Assembly (NCBI GenBank): GCA_942493335.1
Contig: OW818693.1
Location: forward strand, 3,936,166 to 3,968,165
DNA from: an uncultured Clostridia bacterium
GTDB taxonomy: Bacteria > Bacillota > Clostridia > DSM-8532
DNA length: 32,000 nt
Reading direction: 5' to 3'
In this document: positions 1 to 8,909 of the stretch, piece after piece
How the letters are laid out: each line of letters starts with the position of its first letter
How positions within the stretch are numbered: the stretch's first letter is position 1
Notes under the pieces: model-generated
What the model was told of the DNA's origin: nothing
Database searches by the model: none
Seen by the model: only the letters and a program-made list of their open reading frames with translations
Position numbers and translations under genes: made by a program

Positions 1-941
1 ATCAGGCCGTGACGGATATCGTAACCCGCCCGGAGCGAAGCTTCGACATCCGAACCGTATGCAGGGTAGATGTCCACGGCGAACTGCAGTTTCTTCTTCT
101 CCGCCAGGCGGATCAGGCGCGACGTGACCTCGTAATCGTACGGTCCGTGCGAATCCTTCGCACAGATGGATACGGTGTGTTCATCCGTTTCCAGATCATC
201 CCCGACTGCGCCCATGTCGACGGAAATCATTTCGACCAGATCCTCAGGCAAGCCGGCCGAGCCGCCGTGCCCCACTTCCTCGTAGGTGGTGAAAAGCAGC
301 CAGGTTTTCCGGGCAGGGACCACGCTCTTCTCCTTCATCCACTCCGCCAGCGCGACCAGGATGCCGGCCGAAGCCTTGTCGTCCAGATGACGGCTCTTGA
401 TGAAACCGGAAGAGGTGACAACTGTGCGGGGATCGAAGGCGATGAAGTCTCCGGCACAGATGCCAAGCTTCACCGTGTCCTCGCGGGTGGAAACCTTCTC
501 GTCCAGGACGACCTCCATGGTCGTATCGTCCCGCTTGGCGTTCTTCACGTCCTCGCTGACATGCGCCGATGGCTGATTCAGCTGGAGCGTGCCGGAATAA
601 GTTCTGCCATCGCGTGTGAAAACCGTGCAATTCTCCCCTTCCAGGGTGTTTTCCGCGAAGCCGCCGATTTTCGTCATGCGCAGACGGCCGTTGGGTTTGA
701 CGGAGCGGACCATGCCGCCGAGGGTATCCACATGGGCGGCAAATGCGACAGGGGAACCGGTACCGCCCAAATCGACGAGGACGGATCCTTTCCGGGTCCG
801 GACCGGCGTGTAGCCCAAGGCGGTGAACGTCTCGAAAAGATGGGAGGTGACGGCTGCAGTATATCCGGAAGGACTGGGAATGCCACACAGTCCGACAATG
901 TGCTCGATTGCACGGTTGATGGGCGTTTTTCCTATTTTCAT
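1..941 (-). CDS. M42 family metallopeptidase (glutamyl aminopeptidase / FrvX-like); C-terminus runs off the window edge
   Basis: Not in the ORF track because it is open at the window edge. Hand translation of the reverse strand from ATG at 941-939 gives MKIGKTPINRAIEHIVGLCGIPSPSGYTAAVTSHLFETFTALGYTPVRTRKGSVLVDLGG... and ends ...AVDIYPAYGSDVEASLRAGYDIRHGLI, typical of M42 peptidases. GGAGGAGG RBS lies just upstream (plus-strand cctcctcc at about 947-954). Track ORFs 9..1019(+) and 244..990(-) are wrong-frame shadows. Confidence 0.85.
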   Translation of the reverse strand, partial: MKIGKTPINRAIEHIVGLCGIPSPSGYTAAVTSHLFETFTALGYTPVRTRKGSVLVDLGGTGSPVAFAAHVDTLGGMVRSVKPNGRLRMTKIGGFAENTLEGENCTVFTRDGRTYSGTLQLNQPSAHVSEDVKNAKRDDTTMEVVLDEKVSTREDTVKLGICAGDFIAFDPRTVVTSSGFIKSRHLDDKASAGILVALAEWMKEKSVVPARKTWLLFTTYEEVGHGGSAGLPEDLVEMISVDMGAVGDDLETDEHTVSICAKDSHGPYDYEVTSRLIRLAEKKKLQFAVDIYPAYGSDVEASLRAGYDIRHGL

Positions 942-1057
942 GTCTTCCTCCTCCGATGGATGCAATGGAAAATTCCAACCCATTATACACCCGTTTCCTG
1001 TGTGGGCATCAAACTTTGAGGGTAAATTCACTATTGTCGGAATACTGCGAATGTCAA

Positions 1058-1086
1058 TGCGAAGATAATGGCATGTGTGGTATTTT
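1058..1086 (+). promoter_or_regulatory. Possible sigma-A promoter for the agr-like cassette (TGCGAA-N17-TATTTT with TG at -15/-14)
   Basis: TGCGAA at 1058-1063, a 17-nt spacer ending in tgTGg, and TATTTT at 1081-1086, about 95 nt upstream of the small ORF. A direct TGCGAA repeat 12 bp upstream (1046-1051) overlaps it. Motif match by eye only. Confidence 0.3.
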
Positions 1087-1180
1087 GGATGGGTACCGGC
1101 AATGGTGGCGAGTTTGGAGGCGTTCCTGGTTTTGTTGAAAATGTCTATGCCGAAGACAGATCGGTAGGAAAGGAATCCGC

Positions 1181-1315
1181 ATGAAGAATAGCTGGATGCA
1201 GAAGATATTGAAATGGGTGGGCGCGTCAGCCCTGACAGTTGCAGCACTCGCCCCATTGCTCACCACATGGTTGTTCACACAGGAAGCGGAATGCCCGAAG
1301 CATCTGCAGGCCTGA
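1181..1315 (+). CDS. agrD: AgrD-like autoinducing-peptide precursor (44 aa), absent from the ORF track
   Basis: Hand translation gives MKNSWMQKILKWVGASALTVAALAPLLTTWLFTQEAECPKHLQA*. RBS AGGAAAGGA lies 6 nt upstream. It has an amphipathic/hydrophobic N-terminal leader, a short hydrophobic core and a charged tail with a P-K-x-L motif like clostridial AgrD tails. It sits directly upstream of the AgrC/AgrB genes. Confidence 0.6.
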   Translation: MKNSWMQKILKWVGASALTVAALAPLLTTWLFTQEAECPKHLQA

Positions 1316-1385: not shown

Positions 1386-2720
1386 ATGAACAGATTACCC
1401 CTTGATATTGTCGGTACCCTTTTTGAGGCCTTCATCATTTATCTGTTTCACGGAATCCTGTCCGGAAAAAAGAGTGATCTGACAGTGCGACCCTTGCGCG
1501 TTGCGCTGTTTTTCATCCTGTTTGTCGGTGTGAACAACTTGTTGAGCTTCTACATGCCGATCGGTCTGGGCACTCTCTTTGTGACGGTGTCCGCCATCCT
1601 GATGGTGTATGGGTTTCTGCATGCAAACCTTCTGAGTTCCGTCCTCGTCGTGGTCGCATCCCTGCTGATGATCTCGGTCGTGGAGCTGCCATTGGCCTTG
1701 TTGATGGTTGCGGTGACCGGTATGTCGATAGACCAGATCATTGCCGATGATCGGACGTATCTGGTTCTTTTCGCGGTAGGAAAACTGTTCGAAGTATTCC
1801 TTGCCTTGCTTGTCTTCAGAAGCCGGCTCTCTTTTGAGCGGTTCCGCCTGTTGCAGCGGGAAGCCTCCTTGATAGCCGACCTCATCATCCAGCTTTTCCT
1901 GATGCTGATGATCGTCCTTCTTTCCGTGTTCGGTACGGTGAATCAGGAAAACTCGCTGATGTATACGATTTTTGCGCTGACCATCCTGCTCGCGCTCTTC
2001 GGCCTCGGGGTCATGGATCTGCGGGAACGGGAGCGAACCACCACCATTGTCGGGAAATTCAAGGTGCGTGAACAGCAGATTCGCAACATGAAACAGGTCA
2101 TTTCGGTCATAAGGCGCGAAAAGCATGATTTCATGAATCATATTTCGACCATTCAAGGGATGGTGTCCTTGAACCGGCCAAACGCCCTTGATGCGATCGG
2201 AAGCTATCTCTCGCGCATCAACGATTCGCTTCAGGTATCCTTCAGGACCTTCCAGACCGGAAACGATTATCTGGACGGTTTGCTTGCGATCAAGAACAAT
2301 GTCGCCGTACAGCAGAACATCACTTTTCTGGTGGAGGTGGATGCGCCCTTCGACCGCATTGCCATCCCTGAAACCGACTTGATCAGCATCGTGAGCAATT
2401 TGCTTGACAACGCGTTTGATGCCTTTCACGACATGGCGGTTGAAAAACCATACATTCATCTTTCCACCCGCTTTCAGGAGAATGGGGTGGAGTTGGTCAT
2501 TTCGGACAATGGGCGTCCGATCCCCATGGAAATCAGCGAACGGGTCTTCGAGGAGGGATTTTCAACCAAGTCGGAGCTGGAAGGTGAACGCGGGTTTGGA
2601 TTGGCCATCACACGACAGTTCGTCCAGCGGGCGAAGGGCAGTATCTACCTTGTGAGTCATGCCGATGAAACAGCCTTCCATATCCACATGCCTTCCGTAG
2701 CCGTGGTGAAGCCTGCATGA
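1386..2720 (+). CDS. agrC: AgrC-like membrane sensor histidine kinase (about 6-7 TM segments, SpoOB-type H-box, GHKL ATPase)
   Basis: Part of track ORF 1239..2720. The likely start is ATG 1386 (MNRLPLDIVGTLFEAF...), because the upstream extension is non-protein-like and overlaps agrD. The multi-TM N-terminal half is followed by H-box REKHDFMNHISTIQGMV, N-box NLLDNAFDA, G1 ISDNGRPI and G2 GFGLAI. No receiver domain is present. Confidence 0.8.
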   Translation: MNRLPLDIVGTLFEAFIIYLFHGILSGKKSDLTVRPLRVALFFILFVGVNNLLSFYMPIGLGTLFVTVSAILMVYGFLHANLLSSVLVVVASLLMISVVELPLALLMVAVTGMSIDQIIADDRTYLVLFAVGKLFEVFLALLVFRSRLSFERFRLLQREASLIADLIIQLFLMLMIVLLSVFGTVNQENSLMYTIFALTILLALFGLGVMDLRERERTTTIVGKFKVREQQIRNMKQVISVIRREKHDFMNHISTIQGMVSLNRPNALDAIGSYLSRINDSLQVSFRTFQTGNDYLDGLLAIKNNVAVQQNITFLVEVDAPFDRIAIPETDLISIVSNLLDNAFDAFHDMAVEKPYIHLSTRFQENGVELVISDNGRPIPMEISERVFEEGFSTKSELEGERGFGLAITRQFVQRAKGSIYLVSHADETAFHIHMPSVAVVKPA

Positions 2721-3304
2721 GCGGGTTCGTCCGCAGGGTTGCCAATGCGGTTGGCAGGGCGAATCCGCAGTATTCGCCCGAAACGCTTGAATCTGTTGCC
2801 TACGGCCTTCAGGTGATCTTCAATGATGCCACGAAATTGGCGATCCTTTTCCTTCTTTTTGGATTTCTCTTTTCACCGGTTGAATACTTGGTCCTGCTTG
2901 TTTGCTGGACCCTTCCGCATCTGTTCATGGGCGGCTTCCACAATCGGACCTGGCTCGGTTGCCTGGCGTCCGCCTTGGTCTGCCAAGGGTCGATCCTGTT
3001 GCTTTCCCGGTACACCGATCCTGCCGCTGTCATCCGCATTGCCGCGCTTGTGGCAGGTCTCGGGCTGGTTCTCCTCTTGGCGCCGGCTGACCACCGGAAC
3101 AAGCCCATCCGTAGTCTCCGAAAGCGGAAGCAGTTCAAATGGCTATCCTGCATCACCTATTTCGGGGTATCGGGAGCATCATTTCTGTTGCCCGGCTCTT
3201 GGGGACATATCGCCTTCTGGACGCCGGTCTTCCTGGTTCTCCTGATGGTTGCGGGAAAATGGGCCCGACGGGTACAGGCGCGTGCCACACCGGAAGTCGG
3301 ATGA
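2717..3304 (+). CDS. agrB: AgrB family accessory gene regulator protein B (AgrD-processing membrane cysteine peptidase)
   Basis: Polytopic membrane protein with catalytic His...Cys spaced as in S. aureus AgrB H77/C84 (GGFHNRTWLGC, H to C = i+7). It also has the conserved APADHRNKPI segment (compare APAATKKKPIP). Its ATG overlaps the agrC stop (ATGA at 2717-2720), indicating translational coupling. Confidence 0.85.
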   Translation: MSGFVRRVANAVGRANPQYSPETLESVAYGLQVIFNDATKLAILFLLFGFLFSPVEYLVLLVCWTLPHLFMGGFHNRTWLGCLASALVCQGSILLLSRYTDPAAVIRIAALVAGLGLVLLLAPADHRNKPIRSLRKRKQFKWLSCITYFGVSGASFLLPGSWGHIAFWTPVFLVLLMVAGKWARRVQARATPEVG

Positions 3305-3329: not shown

Positions 3330-4766
3330 TCATTTCAGGGATCCGGCCGAAAGCCCCGAATCCCATACCGACAGTCCATCCCGGTCCGCCAGTGCACCGG
3401 CATAGACGCCATCCTTCATGTCACGGACAAACGCGCCATTCCGATCGAAAAGCCTGTAGCGCGCATAACCGTTGGCAAGGGCCATTTCAGCCATCACGTA
3501 CGGCAGTGTCGCCAATCGGTTGTAGGCTTCCATGGAGGCCTGCCAGGGTGTCGGCAGATCCGCCTTGGTTGTTTCCACGGTCAGACAGGGCTTCTGGGTT
3601 TCGTTCGCGACAAAATCACCGAAATAGCCGCTGTAATTATCCGACAGGTCGGTCGGCGTCACACTGTAATGCGTGATGCCGCCTGCCTTGATGGCATATC
3701 GCTTTGATTCGGCATTGTAGGAGGCTGAAAGGTAGGGACGGTCCCAATAGATTACATTGCCCATGCTGTGAAGACTCAGAACAATTCTGTAATTCTCACG
3801 CTTCACGAGGGATGCAAGCGCCTTGGTTTCAGGTTCGCTGGCGGGCTTTGCCCCTGAATAGAACATGGCGGCGGGAATCCTTGAATACAGGCCACGCGAG
3901 AGGGTGGCGCCATTCTGTCGTTTTCCCCATAAGTCGATCCAATGCCCTGCTTTGCCGTCATAGTAAATGGCGGGAAAATTCCTGTTCAGATCAACGCCGG
4001 ACGCATTTGCCTTGAAAATGGGGAAACGCGAAGGGTTGATGCTGTTCAGAAAAGCGAGGATGCCTGGAACGGTAAAGGGTGCTTTTCCATACTTTACGAG
4101 ATCATAACCATCCGGATTGCTGAGAACGACAAAGTCGAACGAGCATTCCGACATGAGGGCGGACATGTCCAGCAGGGGGAGATGCCCTTCGGCAACCGTA
4201 TCTTTTGCATAATTTGCCAGAATCCGATAGGCGATGTACGGATTGGCCGTTTCTCGTGCATGTGTTCCGGCTTCGACCAGAATGGCCGGCTTGCCGCGCT
4301 GCAGCCATGCTTGCTCGAAAGCGGCCTGGGTCGTGATGTTGGCCGGGGTGGTCGGAGTGATCGGGTCTGTCAGAGGTGCTGACAGGTCCATGTCAGAGGA
4401 TGTTCCTGACGAAACAGGAAGAGATGCGAGGGGGCCTGGATCGGGTGACAAGGGACTTGATGTCGGTTCGGAGGCTGACGGAACAAACGGTGAAGCCAAC
4501 CGCATGCGCAGGATGTCCCGGCCGTTGGCGGTCCGGCCGATGACGATGTGGCTGATCAAATCCGGATAGGCGGCCTCGAGCCGAAGCAATTCGTCATTGA
4601 TCTGGCGGGAAGTGAGTTTGGCAAAACGTTCCGGGTTCATGACGACAAAAGGAATTGAGGCGGATGACGCATTCGCGTGGGTGACGGGGAAAACCAGGAA
4701 CAGGACCGTCACAAGCAGGATGAACGCCAAACCGGCAGGATGTCTTTCCCTGTTGCTTCTGGGCAT
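3330..4766 (-). CDS. Secreted M14 family zinc carboxypeptidase (gamma-D-glutamyl-meso-DAP peptidase-like) with a Ser/Pro/Thr-rich insertion
   Basis: Signal peptide MPRSNRERHPAGLAFILLVTVLFLVFPVTHA|N. M14 motifs are GTHARET (HxxE zinc site), VVLSNPDGYD, VDLNRNFP and SLHSMGNVIYW. GGAAGGAGG lies upstream. Confidence 0.85.
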   Translation of the reverse strand: MPRSNRERHPAGLAFILLVTVLFLVFPVTHANASSASIPFVVMNPERFAKLTSRQINDELLRLEAAYPDLISHIVIGRTANGRDILRMRLASPFVPSASEPTSSPLSPDPGPLASLPVSSGTSSDMDLSAPLTDPITPTTPANITTQAAFEQAWLQRGKPAILVEAGTHARETANPYIAYRILANYAKDTVAEGHLPLLDMSALMSECSFDFVVLSNPDGYDLVKYGKAPFTVPGILAFLNSINPSRFPIFKANASGVDLNRNFPAIYYDGKAGHWIDLWGKRQNGATLSRGLYSRIPAAMFYSGAKPASEPETKALASLVKRENYRIVLSLHSMGNVIYWDRPYLSASYNAESKRYAIKAGGITHYSVTPTDLSDNYSGYFGDFVANETQKPCLTVETTKADLPTPWQASMEAYNRLATLPYVMAEMALANGYARYRLFDRNGAFVRDMKDGVYAGALADRDGLSVWDSGLSAGSLK

Positions 4767-4931: not shown

Positions 4932-4999
4932 GGAATGCAAAAAGAGTGCAACACGCCCGGAGAGGCGCTGCCGGTCTCACAGGCGGGAAGGGGATTGAA

Positions 5000-6796
5000 A
5001 TGACTGAACGCATGGAAGCATTGCGAAAGGAAATGACGAAGGAGGGGTTGGACGCATGGCTTGTTCCCAGCGGCGATCCGCACCTCAGCGAATATGTGGC
5101 GGATCACTGGAAGACGAGGGCCTGGCTGTCGGGCTTCACCGGGTCCGCAGGCACACTTCTGGTTACTTTGGATAAGGCTCTGCTGTGGACCGACGGACGC
5201 TACTTCGTCCAGGCGGAGGGTGAACTGGCCGGGAGCGGCATCGAGCTGGTGAAAATGGCCACCCCCGGCTTTCCCACCGTTCTTGAGTGGCTGGAGAAGA
5301 ATCTTCCCGACGGAGCGCGGCTTGGTCTGGATGCTACGCTGTATGCCGCCGCCACGTTGAAGGAATATGAAAAGAAGCTGAGCTTGAAGCAGGGCGTCAT
5401 CGTCGGTGATTTTGACCTGCCCGGGCGGATATGGCCGGGTCGTCCGGCAGTGCCCGCTACGCCTGTCTTTGTACATGATGCGGAATATGCCGGGTTCACC
5501 CCATCGGAGAAGATCACCCGGATCCGTGAAAGAATGACTGCGGAAAAGGCGGACCATTACCTGCTTTCCGCTTTGGATGGCATTGCCTGGCTGTTGAATG
5601 TCCGCGGCGCGGATGTGAAGAACAATCCGGTCACCATTGCCTATGTGCGCATTGGCCAGCAGGATGCGGAACTTTTCATTGATGCGGACAAACTTGATGA
5701 AACCGTTCGCGCGCATCTGTCCGCGAACGGCGTAACGGTTTCCCCGTATGAAACCGTCCTGACTTCGATCGCCAAGCTTCCTGCAGGGTCCCGTGTGGCC
5801 TATGACGCCAAATTGACGAATGCGGGCCTGGCAAAAGCCGTTCCGCATTCCTGCACACCGGTCGAGACCGACGATTTCGTCGTCAAAGCCAAGGCCGTGA
5901 AGAGCGCGGTGGAGATCGAGAACCTGAAACGCTGCCAGGCTCGGGATGGCGCCGCCATGGTGCGCTTTCTCATATGGCTGGAACGGGAGATGGAAAGGCT
6001 TGAGGAAAGCGGAACAGACGGACCGGATGTGACCGAGCTGGATGTTGCTGCAAAGCTGGCGGAGTTGCGTGGCGCCCTTCCCCTGAATCGTGGAGAGAGC
6101 TTCGACACGATTGCCGCGTATGGGTCCAATGCCGCGATGATGCACTACAGCGCGACACCGGAGAGCCATGCCGTGCTGGAACCCCACGGGCTGCTGCTTG
6201 TGGACAGCGGCGGCCAATATCTGGACGGAACAACGGACATCACCCGCACCATTGCGCTGGGGCCTGTTACGGATGAAGAGCGAATGGCATGCACGTTGAC
6301 CCTCCAGTCCCATATCGGGCTGGCCAGGGCTCATTTTCTGGAGGGCAGCACCGGCTCGAACCTGGACGTGCTTGCGCGTCTGCCCATGTGGCGGAACGGA
6401 ATGGACTACAAATGCGGAACAGGGCACGGCGTGGGGTATTTCCTCAGCGTGCACGAAGGCCCGCAGGGTTTCCGGCAGACCCATTCGCCCGTGAAACTCG
6501 AACCGGGGATGATCATCACCAACGAACCGGGTGTCTACCGGGCCGGGAAACTTGGTGTCCGTACCGAGAACACCGTGCTGGTGGTGCCGTCCTGCCAGAC
6601 GGACGATGGAACCTTCTTCAAACTGGAGACGATCTCCTGCTGTCCGATCGATGTGGGAACACTGGATCTTGCCCGTCTTTCCGCCGATGAACGGGAGTGG
6701 CTGAATGAATACCACGCCTTCGTGTTTGCAAGGGTGTCCCCGCATCTGGATGCATCCGAAGCAGCCTGGTTGAAGACGGCGACAGCCCCGGTTTGA
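5000..6796 (+). CDS. Xaa-Pro aminopeptidase / aminopeptidase P family protein (M24B)
   Basis: Track ORF 4946..6796. The preferred start is ATG 5000 (MTERMEALRKEMTKEGLDAWLVPSGDPHLSEY) after GGGAAGGGGA. It has a creatinase-like N-terminal region and M24 metal ligands: DSGGQYLDGTTDITRT, HGVGYFLSVHEGP, NEPGVY, RTENTV. Confidence 0.9.
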   Translation: MTERMEALRKEMTKEGLDAWLVPSGDPHLSEYVADHWKTRAWLSGFTGSAGTLLVTLDKALLWTDGRYFVQAEGELAGSGIELVKMATPGFPTVLEWLEKNLPDGARLGLDATLYAAATLKEYEKKLSLKQGVIVGDFDLPGRIWPGRPAVPATPVFVHDAEYAGFTPSEKITRIRERMTAEKADHYLLSALDGIAWLLNVRGADVKNNPVTIAYVRIGQQDAELFIDADKLDETVRAHLSANGVTVSPYETVLTSIAKLPAGSRVAYDAKLTNAGLAKAVPHSCTPVETDDFVVKAKAVKSAVEIENLKRCQARDGAAMVRFLIWLEREMERLEESGTDGPDVTELDVAAKLAELRGALPLNRGESFDTIAAYGSNAAMMHYSATPESHAVLEPHGLLLVDSGGQYLDGTTDITRTIALGPVTDEERMACTLTLQSHIGLARAHFLEGSTGSNLDVLARLPMWRNGMDYKCGTGHGVGYFLSVHEGPQGFRQTHSPVKLEPGMIITNEPGVYRAGKLGVRTENTVLVVPSCQTDDGTFFKLETISCCPIDVGTLDLARLSADEREWLNEYHAFVFARVSPHLDASEAAWLKTATAPV

Positions 6797-7024: not shown

Positions 7025-7849
7025 TCATTCCAGATTCAGTTTCTTGGCGAGGATGGCATTCGTGATGGCGAAATAACCGGCTGAAACAAGCAAGGAAAAT
7101 AGAATCAGGATCCACATCGCATGGTGGAGAACCGGTGAAATGCCGTTCATGTTCGGATTGATGAGGAGCGCGTTCTCTGGATTTCTGGCATTGAAAAGGG
7201 TCGACAGTCCGAGGCCCGGTATGGGGGTGGAAGCCATCGCCACAAAAAGAATTTGCACGACGGTGCTCAATCCGATGTATGCGCCGATGGATGCCAGAAT
7301 CCTGTGGTCGTTCACCAGATGCCCGATGGCGATGGCGGCGTAGATCATCAGGGGGCCGGAGAACAGGGCGATGAAAAAGGTGAGTATGACCTGAAACACG
7401 AGGAGCGGGGCGCCTTTTGTGTCGGTGATGCCTTGAATGATTTCCGACAGGACATGTCCAGCTTCGCGCAGGAATCCCCCATCGGCTGCGATGATGAGAA
7501 CCGACAATATGGCGACAATGCCGCTTAGCAGCGTCCAGAGCGATGAAATCAGCAGCTTTCCGGTGATATGGACCCAGGGATTCACCGGAAGGGTATGCAT
7601 CAGGTACCCTTCTTCGGACAGCAGATTCTTGTAGAACCGTTGAATCAGCACGATGAAAGTCATGACGAACATGCCGATCAGAATGATGACATACAGGGTC
7701 ATGCTGATGACGGCAGGCGCCTGCCAACTGTCGGGAGACAAAAGCATGATGACCCGGTTGATCAGGGCGGACAGCAAGGCGGCCGCAAAGAGGGGCAGGA
7801 AGATGCGGGTCGTAGCTTTCAACTCGTATTTCATGATTTTGTTCAGCAT
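7025..7849 (-). CDS. ABC-2 type transporter permease (membrane subunit of the YtrA-type ABC system)
   Basis: 274-aa polytopic membrane protein (MLNKIMKYELKATTRIFLPLFAAALLSALINRV...). Its start overlaps the ATPase stop by 7 nt, and it is the last gene of the GntR-ATPase-permease operon. Confidence 0.8.
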   Translation of the reverse strand: MLNKIMKYELKATTRIFLPLFAAALLSALINRVIMLLSPDSWQAPAVISMTLYVIILIGMFVMTFIVLIQRFYKNLLSEEGYLMHTLPVNPWVHITGKLLISSLWTLLSGIVAILSVLIIAADGGFLREAGHVLSEIIQGITDTKGAPLLVFQVILTFFIALFSGPLMIYAAIAIGHLVNDHRILASIGAYIGLSTVVQILFVAMASTPIPGLGLSTLFNARNPENALLINPNMNGISPVLHHAMWILILFSLLVSAGYFAITNAILAKKLNLE

Positions 7850-8541
7850 TTGAAAACCTCCCTGAACAGGGTATCAACCGATTTTCCCCGTTCGCTCCGG
7901 ATGGTGTCGACCGGCGCGGAAAGCACGACCTGACCGTGCTGGAGAAACACCACATGATCCAGGATGTTCTCGATGTCGGCGATGAGGTGCGTGGATAGGA
8001 TGACAGTTGCGTTTTCGTTGTAATTCCGGATGATGGTTTCAAGGATGTAGTCCCTGGCAGCCGGATCCACGCCGCCGATGGGTTCGTCCAACAGATACAG
8101 GTCTGCATTTCGGCTCATGACGAGGATCAGTTGCACTTTTTCCTTCGTTCCCTTCGACAGCGTCTTGATCTTGTCGTTCGGATCGATGCCAAGCCGGGCA
8201 AGCATGTCGTTGGCCTTCATCCTGTCGAAATCGGAATAGAAGTCCTTGAAGAATTCAAGGATCTGACTGACCCGCATCCAATCGTTCAGGTAGGTTTTCT
8301 CCGGCAGATAGGAGACGATCCGCTTTGTCGCGATGCCGGGTTTTTCGCCGGCAATGCGCAATTCTCCTGATGTTGGAGACAACAGTGCGTTTGCCAGCTT
8401 GATGAAGGTGGTCTTGCCGCTGCCGTTTGGTCCGAGCAGGCCGACGATCTGGCCGCGTTCGAGGGAAAGGTTCATGCCCGCAAGGGCATGTTTGCCGCCA
8501 AACGACTTTTTCAAGTCGTGACATTCCAGAATTGCACTCAT
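7843..8541 (-). CDS. ABC transporter ATP-binding protein
   Basis: Walker A GPNGSGKTT, signature-like LSKGTKEK, Walker B LYLLDEP and H-loop STH. The start overlaps the GntR stop (ATGA-type overlap at 8538-8541). Confidence 0.92.
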   Translation of the reverse strand: MSAILECHDLKKSFGGKHALAGMNLSLERGQIVGLLGPNGSGKTTFIKLANALLSPTSGELRIAGEKPGIATKRIVSYLPEKTYLNDWMRVSQILEFFKDFYSDFDRMKANDMLARLGIDPNDKIKTLSKGTKEKVQLILVMSRNADLYLLDEPIGGVDPAARDYILETIIRNYNENATVILSTHLIADIENILDHVVFLQHGQVVLSAPVDTIRSERGKSVDTLFREVFKC

Positions 8542-8909
8542 TTGTTCAACTCCTCCAGCATCCGGCTGATCCGTGCCAGCGTCTCCGCCTTCCCAAATCC
8601 CAGCCTGCGCATGTTGTCGAGAAATGCCTCGATTTGTTCCTGGGCGATGGTTTCTTTTGCCAGTTCGACCATTTTCGCATCCTCCGTTACAGAGCGTCCG
8701 CTGGTCCGGTGTGTTGTCAGCAGCCCCGCCTCTTCAAGCTGGGCAAGGGCCTTCTGCATCGTATTCGGGTTCACCGAGGCTTCCTGCGCAAGGTCCCGGA
8801 CGGAAGGCAATTTGCTTCCCAAAGGATAGATGCCGGAAATGATCCGGATTTCCACCTGTTCGATCAGCTGGGCATACAAAGGTCTGTCTGTTTTCAAGTC
8901 CCAGGGCAT
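8538..8909 (-). CDS. GntR family transcriptional regulator, YtrA subfamily (short, 123 aa)
   Basis: Winged-HTH sequence PLYAQLIEQVEIRIISGIYPLGSKLPSVRDLAQEASVNPNTMQKALAQLEEAGLLTTHRTSGRSV with a short C-terminal extension. GAGGAGGG RBS lies 5 nt upstream of ATG 8909. Confidence 0.9.
   Translation of the reverse strand: MPWDLKTDRPLYAQLIEQVEIRIISGIYPLGSKLPSVRDLAQEASVNPNTMQKALAQLEEAGLLTTHRTSGRSVTEDAKMVELAKETIAQEQIEAFLDNMRRLGFGKAETLARISRMLEELNK

Follow-up and report, generated by a model that had tools for sequence, protein, structure and literature searches.

The subject of this study is a 44-codon open reading frame (ORF) at positions 1181-1315 of the forward strand in a 32,000-nucleotide stretch of contig OW818693.1 from an uncultured Clostridia bacterium, called the window below. 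It comes first in an operon that continues on the same strand with genes for an AgrC-like sensor kinase and for the peptidase/cyclase AgrB. The ORF is a real, conserved gene, and its product is probably an AgrD-type precursor of an autoinducing peptide (AIP), which would be made and sensed by the products of the next two genes through a macrolactone closed on Thr29. New in this analysis are the recognition of Thr in the nucleophile column, where it predominates within a clade, and of an AgrD subclade that is invisible to the curated models; the Thr-ester chemistry that the alignments imply would be new as well.

Conservation of the small ORF

An earlier reading of the same DNA (the original prediction) had given a translation for 1181-1315 and a ribosome-binding site, and both were reproduced exactly: the frame reads MKNSWMQKILKWVGASALTVAALAPLLTTWLFTQEAECPKHLQA and then stops, and AGGAAAGGA stands 6 nt 5' of the ATG. 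The presence of a 44-codon ORF proves nothing by itself, because ORFs of that size are common by chance (103 of at least 30 aa were counted in the first 9 kb of the window). On conservation in related loci, on which the original prediction had let its case depend, the ORF held up. The exact peptide and two close variants are present in public assemblies (P0001, P0004, and P0005), and their loci, L001 and L067, have the same neighbourhood as the window. The ORF is kept at the same operon position in L001, L067, L002, and L009, and more distant loci, with AgrBs 36-43% identical, still carry a small ORF in the same place.

The ORF copies of three close relatives show almost only silent differences from that of the window, and their replacements are confined to the leader. 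Between the window and L001 there are 14 silent and 4 replacement codon differences (replacement and silent differences per site, pN 0.054 and pS 0.49), with all replacements falling within the first 16 codons. In codons 25-44, which comprise the predicted core and the tail, there are 6 silent and no replacement differences from both L001 and L067. Purifying selection constrains the ORF as strongly as it does the two downstream genes: in the comparison with L001, pN/pS is about 0.11 here, 0.12 in the kinase gene, and 0.23 in agrB.

The relatives sampled comprised the contigs of the nearest AgrB relatives, 37 loci from GTDB genomes, and 21 metagenome loci. The GTDB loci were found by scanning contigs with an alignment of eight AgrB sequences; a contig scan with the window AgrB alone gave no match. 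A word-indexed search returned one protein for the peptide alone, three for a six-sequence peptide profile, and for AgrB only the protein itself and one 85% relative. In an exhaustive HMMER search the AgrB matches beyond this relative were at 38% identity or lower, and the window AgrB is isolated in sequence space. The metagenome scan added two more distant loci of the Thr type described below and no new member of the window subclade.

A small ORF is found upstream of an AgrC-like kinase and AgrB in 35 loci, the window included, and the order agrD-agrC-agrB (D-C-B) occurs in 37 of the 38 loci that carry both large genes. The family peptides were gathered by a tail regular expression that the window ORF also satisfies, and the profile alignment extends through leader and core. 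They share a basic/hydrophobic leader and a variable five-residue hydrophobic core, followed by the tail [HQY]Q[PV][EK]CP[KEQ][EH]LLK. The window, L001, L067, L002, and L009 form a divergent subclade with the tail QE..CP.HL...

AgrD family membership

The original prediction had proposed a check against the AgrD models PF05931 and TIGR04223, and this check gave it no support: the window peptide was without a match to either at E ≤ 10, as was the peptide of L009. TIGR04223 ('AgrD family cyclic lactone autoinducer peptide') covers 30 of the 35 syntenic family peptides. It matched all 30 peptides outside the window subclade at E ≤ 0.01, including 16 with Thr at the ring position, and gave no match at E ≤ 10 to the window peptide or the four peptides closest to it. 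Seven of the outside peptides, checked one by one, were all above the 19-bit cut-off, and because the model already scores Thr-type relatives above this cut-off, they would be annotated as AgrD family. Two Cys-type peptides, those of L030 and L043, also touch PF05931. The window subclade is thus divergent and escapes all curated AgrD models.

A profile of 29 relatives, from which the subclade had been excluded, matched the window ORF over its full length and gap-free at 31 bits (E = 9e-9). The runner-up among the 769 six-frame segments of the window had E = 1.2, and no other AgrD-like ORF was found among these segments with the family profile. The peptide begins with an amphipathic/hydrophobic leader, MKNSWMQKILKWVGASALTVAALAPLL, as read directly, and the ORF lies 1.4 kb upstream of agrB in the same operon, with only the kinase gene between. 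Taken together, operon context, purifying selection, and the 35-member syntenic family bear out the AgrD identity proposed earlier, although only transitively, through synteny and the relatives' profile, because the curated models miss the window peptide. A canonical AgrD next to this AgrB, or next to AgrB in relatives, had been regarded as damaging to the proposal; no such second AgrD adjoins either, and in some relatives the same ORF bears Ser or Cys at the ring position.

Threonine in the ring-nucleophile column

Columns were numbered from the tail Cys as 0, which makes -9 the column of the ring Cys in canonical AgrDs. Canonical AgrDs from loci with agrB before agrD, aligned to the same tail, have Cys at -9 (L041 ACGLFHYEPEVPEQL, L042 ACLWGIYQPEEPESL, L062, and L065), and the peptides of L030 and L043 have Cys at -9 plus the tail Cys. 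Described AgrDs have a Cys (thiolactone) or Ser (lactone) four residues before the AgrB cleavage site; in the window peptide the aligned residue is Thr29. The original prediction was right to place Thr29 on this column, where it falls in gap-free profile and family alignments, and right that the core is free of Cys and Ser, the sole Cys (C38) lying within the tail. It had also taken Thr for an unusual ring residue. The Thr is there, but it is not a one-off.

Over the 35 loci, column -9 holds Thr 21 times, Ser 12 times, Cys twice, and nothing else, encoded by ACA, ACT, or ACC (Thr), TCN or AGY (Ser), and TGT (Cys). On a neighbour-joining tree built from the cognate AgrBs, a minimum of seven changes of state can be counted. 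In the preceding column Ala is found in 21 of 33 peptides; it never occurs at -9, though a single base change leads from Thr or Ser to Ala. The distance from this residue to the tail Pro is 10 residues in the family. Because column -9 accepts just those three side chains that could attack an acyl-enzyme, it looks like a nucleophile position, and on sequence grounds these results support Thr29 as the ring nucleophile of AgrB, whose product would be a Thr-lactone or a rearranged form of it.

The residues before the nucleophile differ between the window subclade and most relatives. Most relatives have Ser-x-Ala, a small-x-Ala site resembling that of signal peptidase, at positions -12 to -10 directly before the nucleophile, whereas the subclade has A-P-L-[LV]-T before Thr29 and no small-x-Ala site. 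The subclade conserves Thr29 together with the adjoining Thr28. Ser and Thr are frequent in the columns upstream of the nucleophile, and position -12 is Ser, Thr, or Cys in 25 of 33 peptides.

The follower agrees with the AgrD pattern, having an acidic residue at +2 (E35), Pro at +6 (P39), and Leu at +9 (L42) from the predicted cleavage site; in the clade, the Pro column is Pro in 33 of 33 and the Leu column Leu in 32 of 33. These residues correspond to E34, P38, and L41 of Staphylococcus aureus AgrD, in the case of P38 and L41 according to Thoendel & Horswill 2009. Processing of S. aureus AgrD requires D33/E34 (PMC10196373). The original prediction had noted the single tail Cys in passing. 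Its place in the tail was read correctly, but it is not incidental: Cys-Pro (Cys38-Pro39 in the window) is invariant in 35 of 35 clade peptides, its Cys being encoded by TGC in some and by TGT in others. At this position, canonical AgrDs of agrB-agrD order have Val or Glu, and in characterised systems AgrB cleaves off the segment to which the Cys-Pro belongs. The conservation may reflect some feature of recognition or catalysis by AgrB that has so far gone unnoticed.

The kinase and AgrB

The kinase has about seven hydrophobic helices in residues 1-210 by hydropathy, an H-box EKHDFMNH near residue 246, and the Pfam domains SPOB_a, HATPase_c, and HATPase_c_5. This is the AgrC-type build, with a polytopic sensor of six to seven helices, no large external domain, and a kinase core. 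The staphylococcal AgrC model of NCBIfam aligns to residues 43-416 with E = 5e-14, a score far below its equivalog cut-off.

The agrB gene is where the original prediction had put it (2717-3304), its product matching PF04647 with E = 3.3e-25 and 89 bits against a cut-off of 23. The catalytic residues are His75 (2939-2941) and Cys82 (2960-2962). G72, G73, H75, C82, and P123 are invariant among 25 AgrB homologues, and the first four of these also in 33 clade AgrBs, with a His-to-Cys spacing of seven residues. G75, H77, and C84 are the counterparts of the conserved Gly, His, and Cys in S. aureus AgrB (PMC10196373). The AgrBs of the window and L001 have a His (His68, 2918-2920, in the window) at the equivalent of S. 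aureus R70, which is Arg in the other 31 of the 33 clade AgrBs; the R70G exchange abolished peptidase activity in S. aureus (PMC10196373). A mutual-information scan for AgrB residues that track the nucleophile type gave only variable columns confounded by phylogeny. Sequence searches of the PDB with AgrB and an AgrB profile returned only spurious armadillo-repeat matches or none, and these were discarded.

Canonical agrBDCA loci have an adjacent gene for a LytTR regulator (AgrA), which is absent from the window locus. No response-regulator receiver (REC) domain was found in the 32-kb window by phmmer with CheY, Spo0F, and AgrA or by Pfam on 20 window ORFs, and none within about 4 kb of any D-C-B locus by phmmer with the same three queries. 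The AgrC-like kinase is an orphan in every D-C-B locus. Regulators are present only at the distant Butyrivibrio loci L044 and L045.

Proposed mechanism and alternatives

We infer the following scheme, in its chemical steps as well as in the size of the ring, the cut at the N-terminus, and the output of signalling. The leader would put the 44-residue peptide into the membrane, and AgrB would recognise the follower through E35, P39, and L42. Cys82 of AgrB would attack the Thr33-Gln34 bond (cleavage may instead fall after Gln34), so that the follower leaves and the remaining peptide is held as an acyl-enzyme thioester. Where AIPs usually rely on a Cys thiol or a Ser hydroxyl, the hydroxyl of the Thr29 side chain would then resolve the thioester to the five-residue macrolactone cyclo-O-(TWLFT). 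Thermodynamics favours acyl transfer from a thioester to an alcohol, which is kinetically slower when the alcohol is secondary. A protease would trim the leader, and the exported peptide would be sensed by the seven-helix AgrC-like kinase, which would signal to a regulator encoded elsewhere. Should trimming expose Thr29 as the N-terminus, the ester would be expected to rearrange, through an O-to-N acyl shift, into a head-to-tail cyclopeptide. Possibly the ring has six residues and ends at Q34, or Thr28 is used instead.

Because small-x-Ala stands directly before the nucleophile, the peptides of most relatives are suggested to lack an N-terminal extension, and for these an O-to-N shift to a homodetic ring would be expected by analogy with the clostridial S-to-N shift. 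An exocyclic extension is plausible in the window subclade because A-P-L-[LV]-T stands before Thr29. For the clade as a whole, we see about an even chance that a clostridial agr group with the order agrD-agrC-agrB and without agrA uses Thr as its usual AgrB nucleophile, giving Thr-O-ester macrolactones or O-to-N homodetic rings, with an invariant follower Cys-Pro and with the window as a divergent subclade.

Several points weigh against a Thr29 macrolactone. Thr is a secondary alcohol and hence a poorer nucleophile, and no AgrB is known to use it, the reviews and primers to 2025 naming only Cys and Ser. The case for Thr-ester chemistry comes from sequence comparison, and part of the Cys/Ser/Thr signal could be compositional because the upstream columns are Ser/Thr-rich. 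In the window subclade there are two adjacent Thr residues (T28 and T29) and the small-x-Ala site is lacking. In addition, the window peptide is missed by both curated models, its AgrB has His at the Arg70 equivalent, which may matter by analogy with the inactive R70G protein of S. aureus, and a cognate response regulator was found neither in the 32-kb window nor near the D-C-B loci.

Some of these points would also fit an unlikely alternative in which AgrB acts on Thr-type precursors as a peptidase only, so that the acyl-enzyme is hydrolysed and a linear signal ending in ...TWLFT is released. The weaker nucleophile, the unusual His of the window AgrB, and the failure to find a described Thr-lactone AIP in the literature searched all speak for such a product. 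However, it gives no reason for a column that is limited to Thr, Ser, and Cys and never holds Ala over at least seven changes. Moreover, linear control versions of the Clostridium thermocellum and Ruminiclostridium cellulolyticum signals have been tested, and that of C. thermocellum was without effect (PMC5322536).

It is also improbable that the Thr ester is only transient, with the leader cut exactly before Thr29 and an O-to-N shift yielding a homodetic head-to-tail cyclopentapeptide as the signal, along the route of clostridial cyclic AIPs (cAIPs) with O in place of S. The free interchange of Cys, Ser, and Thr would suit a traceless handle, most relatives have the small-x-Ala site directly before the nucleophile, and clostridial AIPs free of an N-terminal extension rearrange from thiolactone to lactam (PMC8251862). 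On the other hand, the Ser peptide of C. thermocellum was reported as a lactone (PMC5322536), and in the window subclade the sequence before Thr29 is A-P-L-L-T, where a plausible N-terminal extension would block the shift.

The invariant tail raises the question of whether its Cys could be the true nucleophile. AgrB would then cut after Leu42 and close the thiolactone C38-P-K-H-L42, so that only two residues remained as follower and a long variable stretch lay outside the ring. In favour of this, the motif Cys-Pro-x-x-Leu is fully or almost fully conserved across 35 of 35 peptides, either Cys codon occurring, and from Cys to Leu there are exactly five residues. We nevertheless consider such a ring very unlikely. 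The tail aligns gap-free with canonical followers (L041, L042, L062, and L065, and the PF05931 alignment of L030) that have their Cys upstream, L030 and L043 have both cysteines, and the segment in question is removed in S. aureus and Clostridium perfringens (PMC10196373, PMC7300355). The upstream restriction to Cys, Ser, and Thr would be left unexplained, and a near-identical ring (CPKEL or CPEEL) in many species would remove the specificity of the signal.

Finally, a decaying or non-functional locus, or an ORF that is not a substrate of this AgrB, might be read from the missing curated-model match, the changed Arg70 equivalent, and the regulator not found nearby, but it is scarcely credible against the strong purifying selection on all three genes, a core and tail identical in three genomes despite 6 silent changes, the lack of another AgrD-like ORF in the window, and the 25 nt from agrB to the convergent gene, which leave no room for a second agrD after agrB.

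Relation to known systems

Among the closest described systems is that of C. thermocellum (Hungateiclostridium/Acetivibrio), whose AgrD Clo1313_2818 yields a Ser-lactone pentapeptide that was detected in culture supernatant by liquid chromatography-tandem mass spectrometry (PMC5322536). Similar to the window family, it has a hydroxyl nucleophile, a five-residue ring, and a spacing of 10 from S25 to P35, and as in most window relatives, its leader is predicted to be cut directly before the nucleophile (PMC5322536). In contrast to the window, the nucleophile is Ser, and according to its authors the gene is not co-localised with agrB or agrC. The AIP of Staphylococcus pseudintermedius and GBAP of Enterococcus faecalis (from FsrD) are likewise macrolactones made by AgrB or FsrB, in which O replaces S (PMC12312760). 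They differ from the window in that a primary alcohol (Ser) rather than a secondary one (Thr) is esterified, in the gene orders agrBDCA and fsrBDCA with a LytTR regulator, and, for GBAP, in a ring of 9 residues.

C. perfringens AgrD differs from the window in its Cys nucleophile, in the order agrB-agrD, and in sensing via VirS/VirR. Its tail, which we take to be HQPEEPKSL as given in the original prediction, is very similar to QEAECPKHL of the window. The core given there, CLWFT(H), agrees with the published one and is very similar to TWLFT (PMC7300355). Rc-AIP1 of R. cellulolyticum and other clostridial cAIPs are also products of AgrB and AgrD free of an N-terminal extension, in which the (thio)ester primes a lactam rearrangement; unlike the window, Rc-AIP1 has a Cys nucleophile, a six-residue ring (CWFWSY), and an S-to-N shift (PMC8251862).

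The primers, reviews, and mining studies to 2025 describe only Cys (thiolactone) and Ser (lactone) nucleophiles and homodetic rearrangement products (e.g., PMC12312760, PMC11953309, PMC8251862). Neither a Thr-derived AIP nor the tail motif of the clade was found in full-text literature searches, which cover few subscription journals, so that this absence is not proof. A Cys or Ser nucleophile is taken for granted in the structure prediction of AIPs, in genome mining, and in programmes on synthetic AIPs (e.g., PMC11953309). If Thr is indeed used, the nucleophile rule would widen to Cys, Ser, and Thr, and a whole set of clostridial signals would become predictable, since 21 of the 35 peptides are Thr-type, several of them from cultured type strains. 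AgrB would then acylate a secondary alcohol, which is relevant both to how the enzyme works and to its use in peptide macrocyclisation. Isolates with a Thr-type peptide include Geosporobacter subterraneus DSM 17957 (predicted ring TLFYT), Lutispora thermophila DSM 19022 (TLILS), Lutispora saccharofermentans m25 (TMVLS), Anaerosolibacter carboniphilus DSM 103526 (TLMLS), and Anaerophilus nitritogenes MJB2 (TLWYS), in all of which small-x-Ala precedes the Thr. In addition, synteny together with a clade-specific profile can recover divergent AgrDs that PF05931 and TIGR04223 miss, and the invariant follower Cys-Pro and the partnerless kinase are further handles on non-canonical agr circuits.

Genomic context

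The features of the locus are listed in Table 1.

Table 1. Features of the agr locus in the window, with the evidence for each.
Feature	Position	Strand	Evidence
agrD-like gene, 44 codons and stop, MKNSWMQKILKWVGASALTVAALAPLLTTWLFTQEAECPKHLQA	1181-1315	+	Translation, conservation, family hidden Markov model
Shine-Dalgarno-like AGGAAAGGA, ATG 6 nt downstream	1166-1174	+	Direct reading; kept in L001
Leader M1-T28, basic/amphipathic start, then hydrophobic stretch	1181-1264	+	Sequence, alignment of relatives
Predicted core T29-W-L-F-T33; Thr29 is ACA, 1265-1267; Thr33 predicted as acyl donor	1265-1279	+	Gap-free alignments
Follower QEAECPKHLQA; Cys38-Pro39 at 1292-1297	1280-1312	+	Clade column counts
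AgrC-like sensor histidine kinase, 444 aa	1386-2720	+	Pfam, NCBIfam, hydropathy
AgrB peptidase/cyclase, 195 aa	2717-3304	+	PF04647; overlaps kinase stop
Intergenic region between the divergent M42 gene and agrD-like ORF	942-1165		Alignment with L001

The intergenic region presumably contains the promoter and any regulatory sites. A block of the spacer at about 1000-1105 is as conserved with L001 as coding sequence. Direct repeats occur at 1084-1097 and 1113-1126 (TTTGGATGGGTACC/TTTGGAGGCGTTCC) and at 1050-1060 and 1140-1150 (AATGTCAATGC/AATGTCTATGC); they are candidate regulator-binding sites by sequence, and short two-copy repeats often arise by chance. A scan of the plus strand for promoters and terminators gave no sigma-70-like site or other signal above shuffled expectation. 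Two spacer ORFs, 1068-1184 and 1075-1167, were rejected as genes because single-base indels in L001 disrupt their frames.

The agr locus is set among peptidase genes. Upstream on the opposite strand lies an M42 aminopeptidase gene (3-941, minus strand), which is also upstream in L001 and L067. The convergent gene past agrB (3330-4766, minus strand) codes for an M14 zinc carboxypeptidase whose N-terminus is hydrophobic. At 4946-6796 on the plus strand follows a gene for an M24 Xaa-Pro aminopeptidase. A part of the M42, M14, and M24 peptidases in peptide trimming or turnover is conceivable. Farther downstream, a small operon at 7025-8909 (minus strand) codes for a GntR-family regulator, an ABC ATPase, and a membrane protein without a Pfam family, and appears unrelated to the agr system.

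Among the relatives, the agrD of Thermohalobacter berrensis (L034:3789-3932) is followed directly by agrB, without an intervening kinase gene, and in Geosporobacter ferrireducens (L027) the agrB homologue adjoins an ORF for a MATE-like transporter, with no detectable agrD. In about 28 relatives a gene that directly follows agrB, or overlaps its end, codes for a conserved protein of about 77 aa (..FFVALV.ICD.L.VD.P.WT..ED..L.KK..). The gene, absent from the window, L001, L002, and L009, is found for example at L020:4566-4802, L015:4567-4815, and L010:4567-4800. Its product, which belongs to no Pfam family, is a candidate fourth component of the agr operons concerned.

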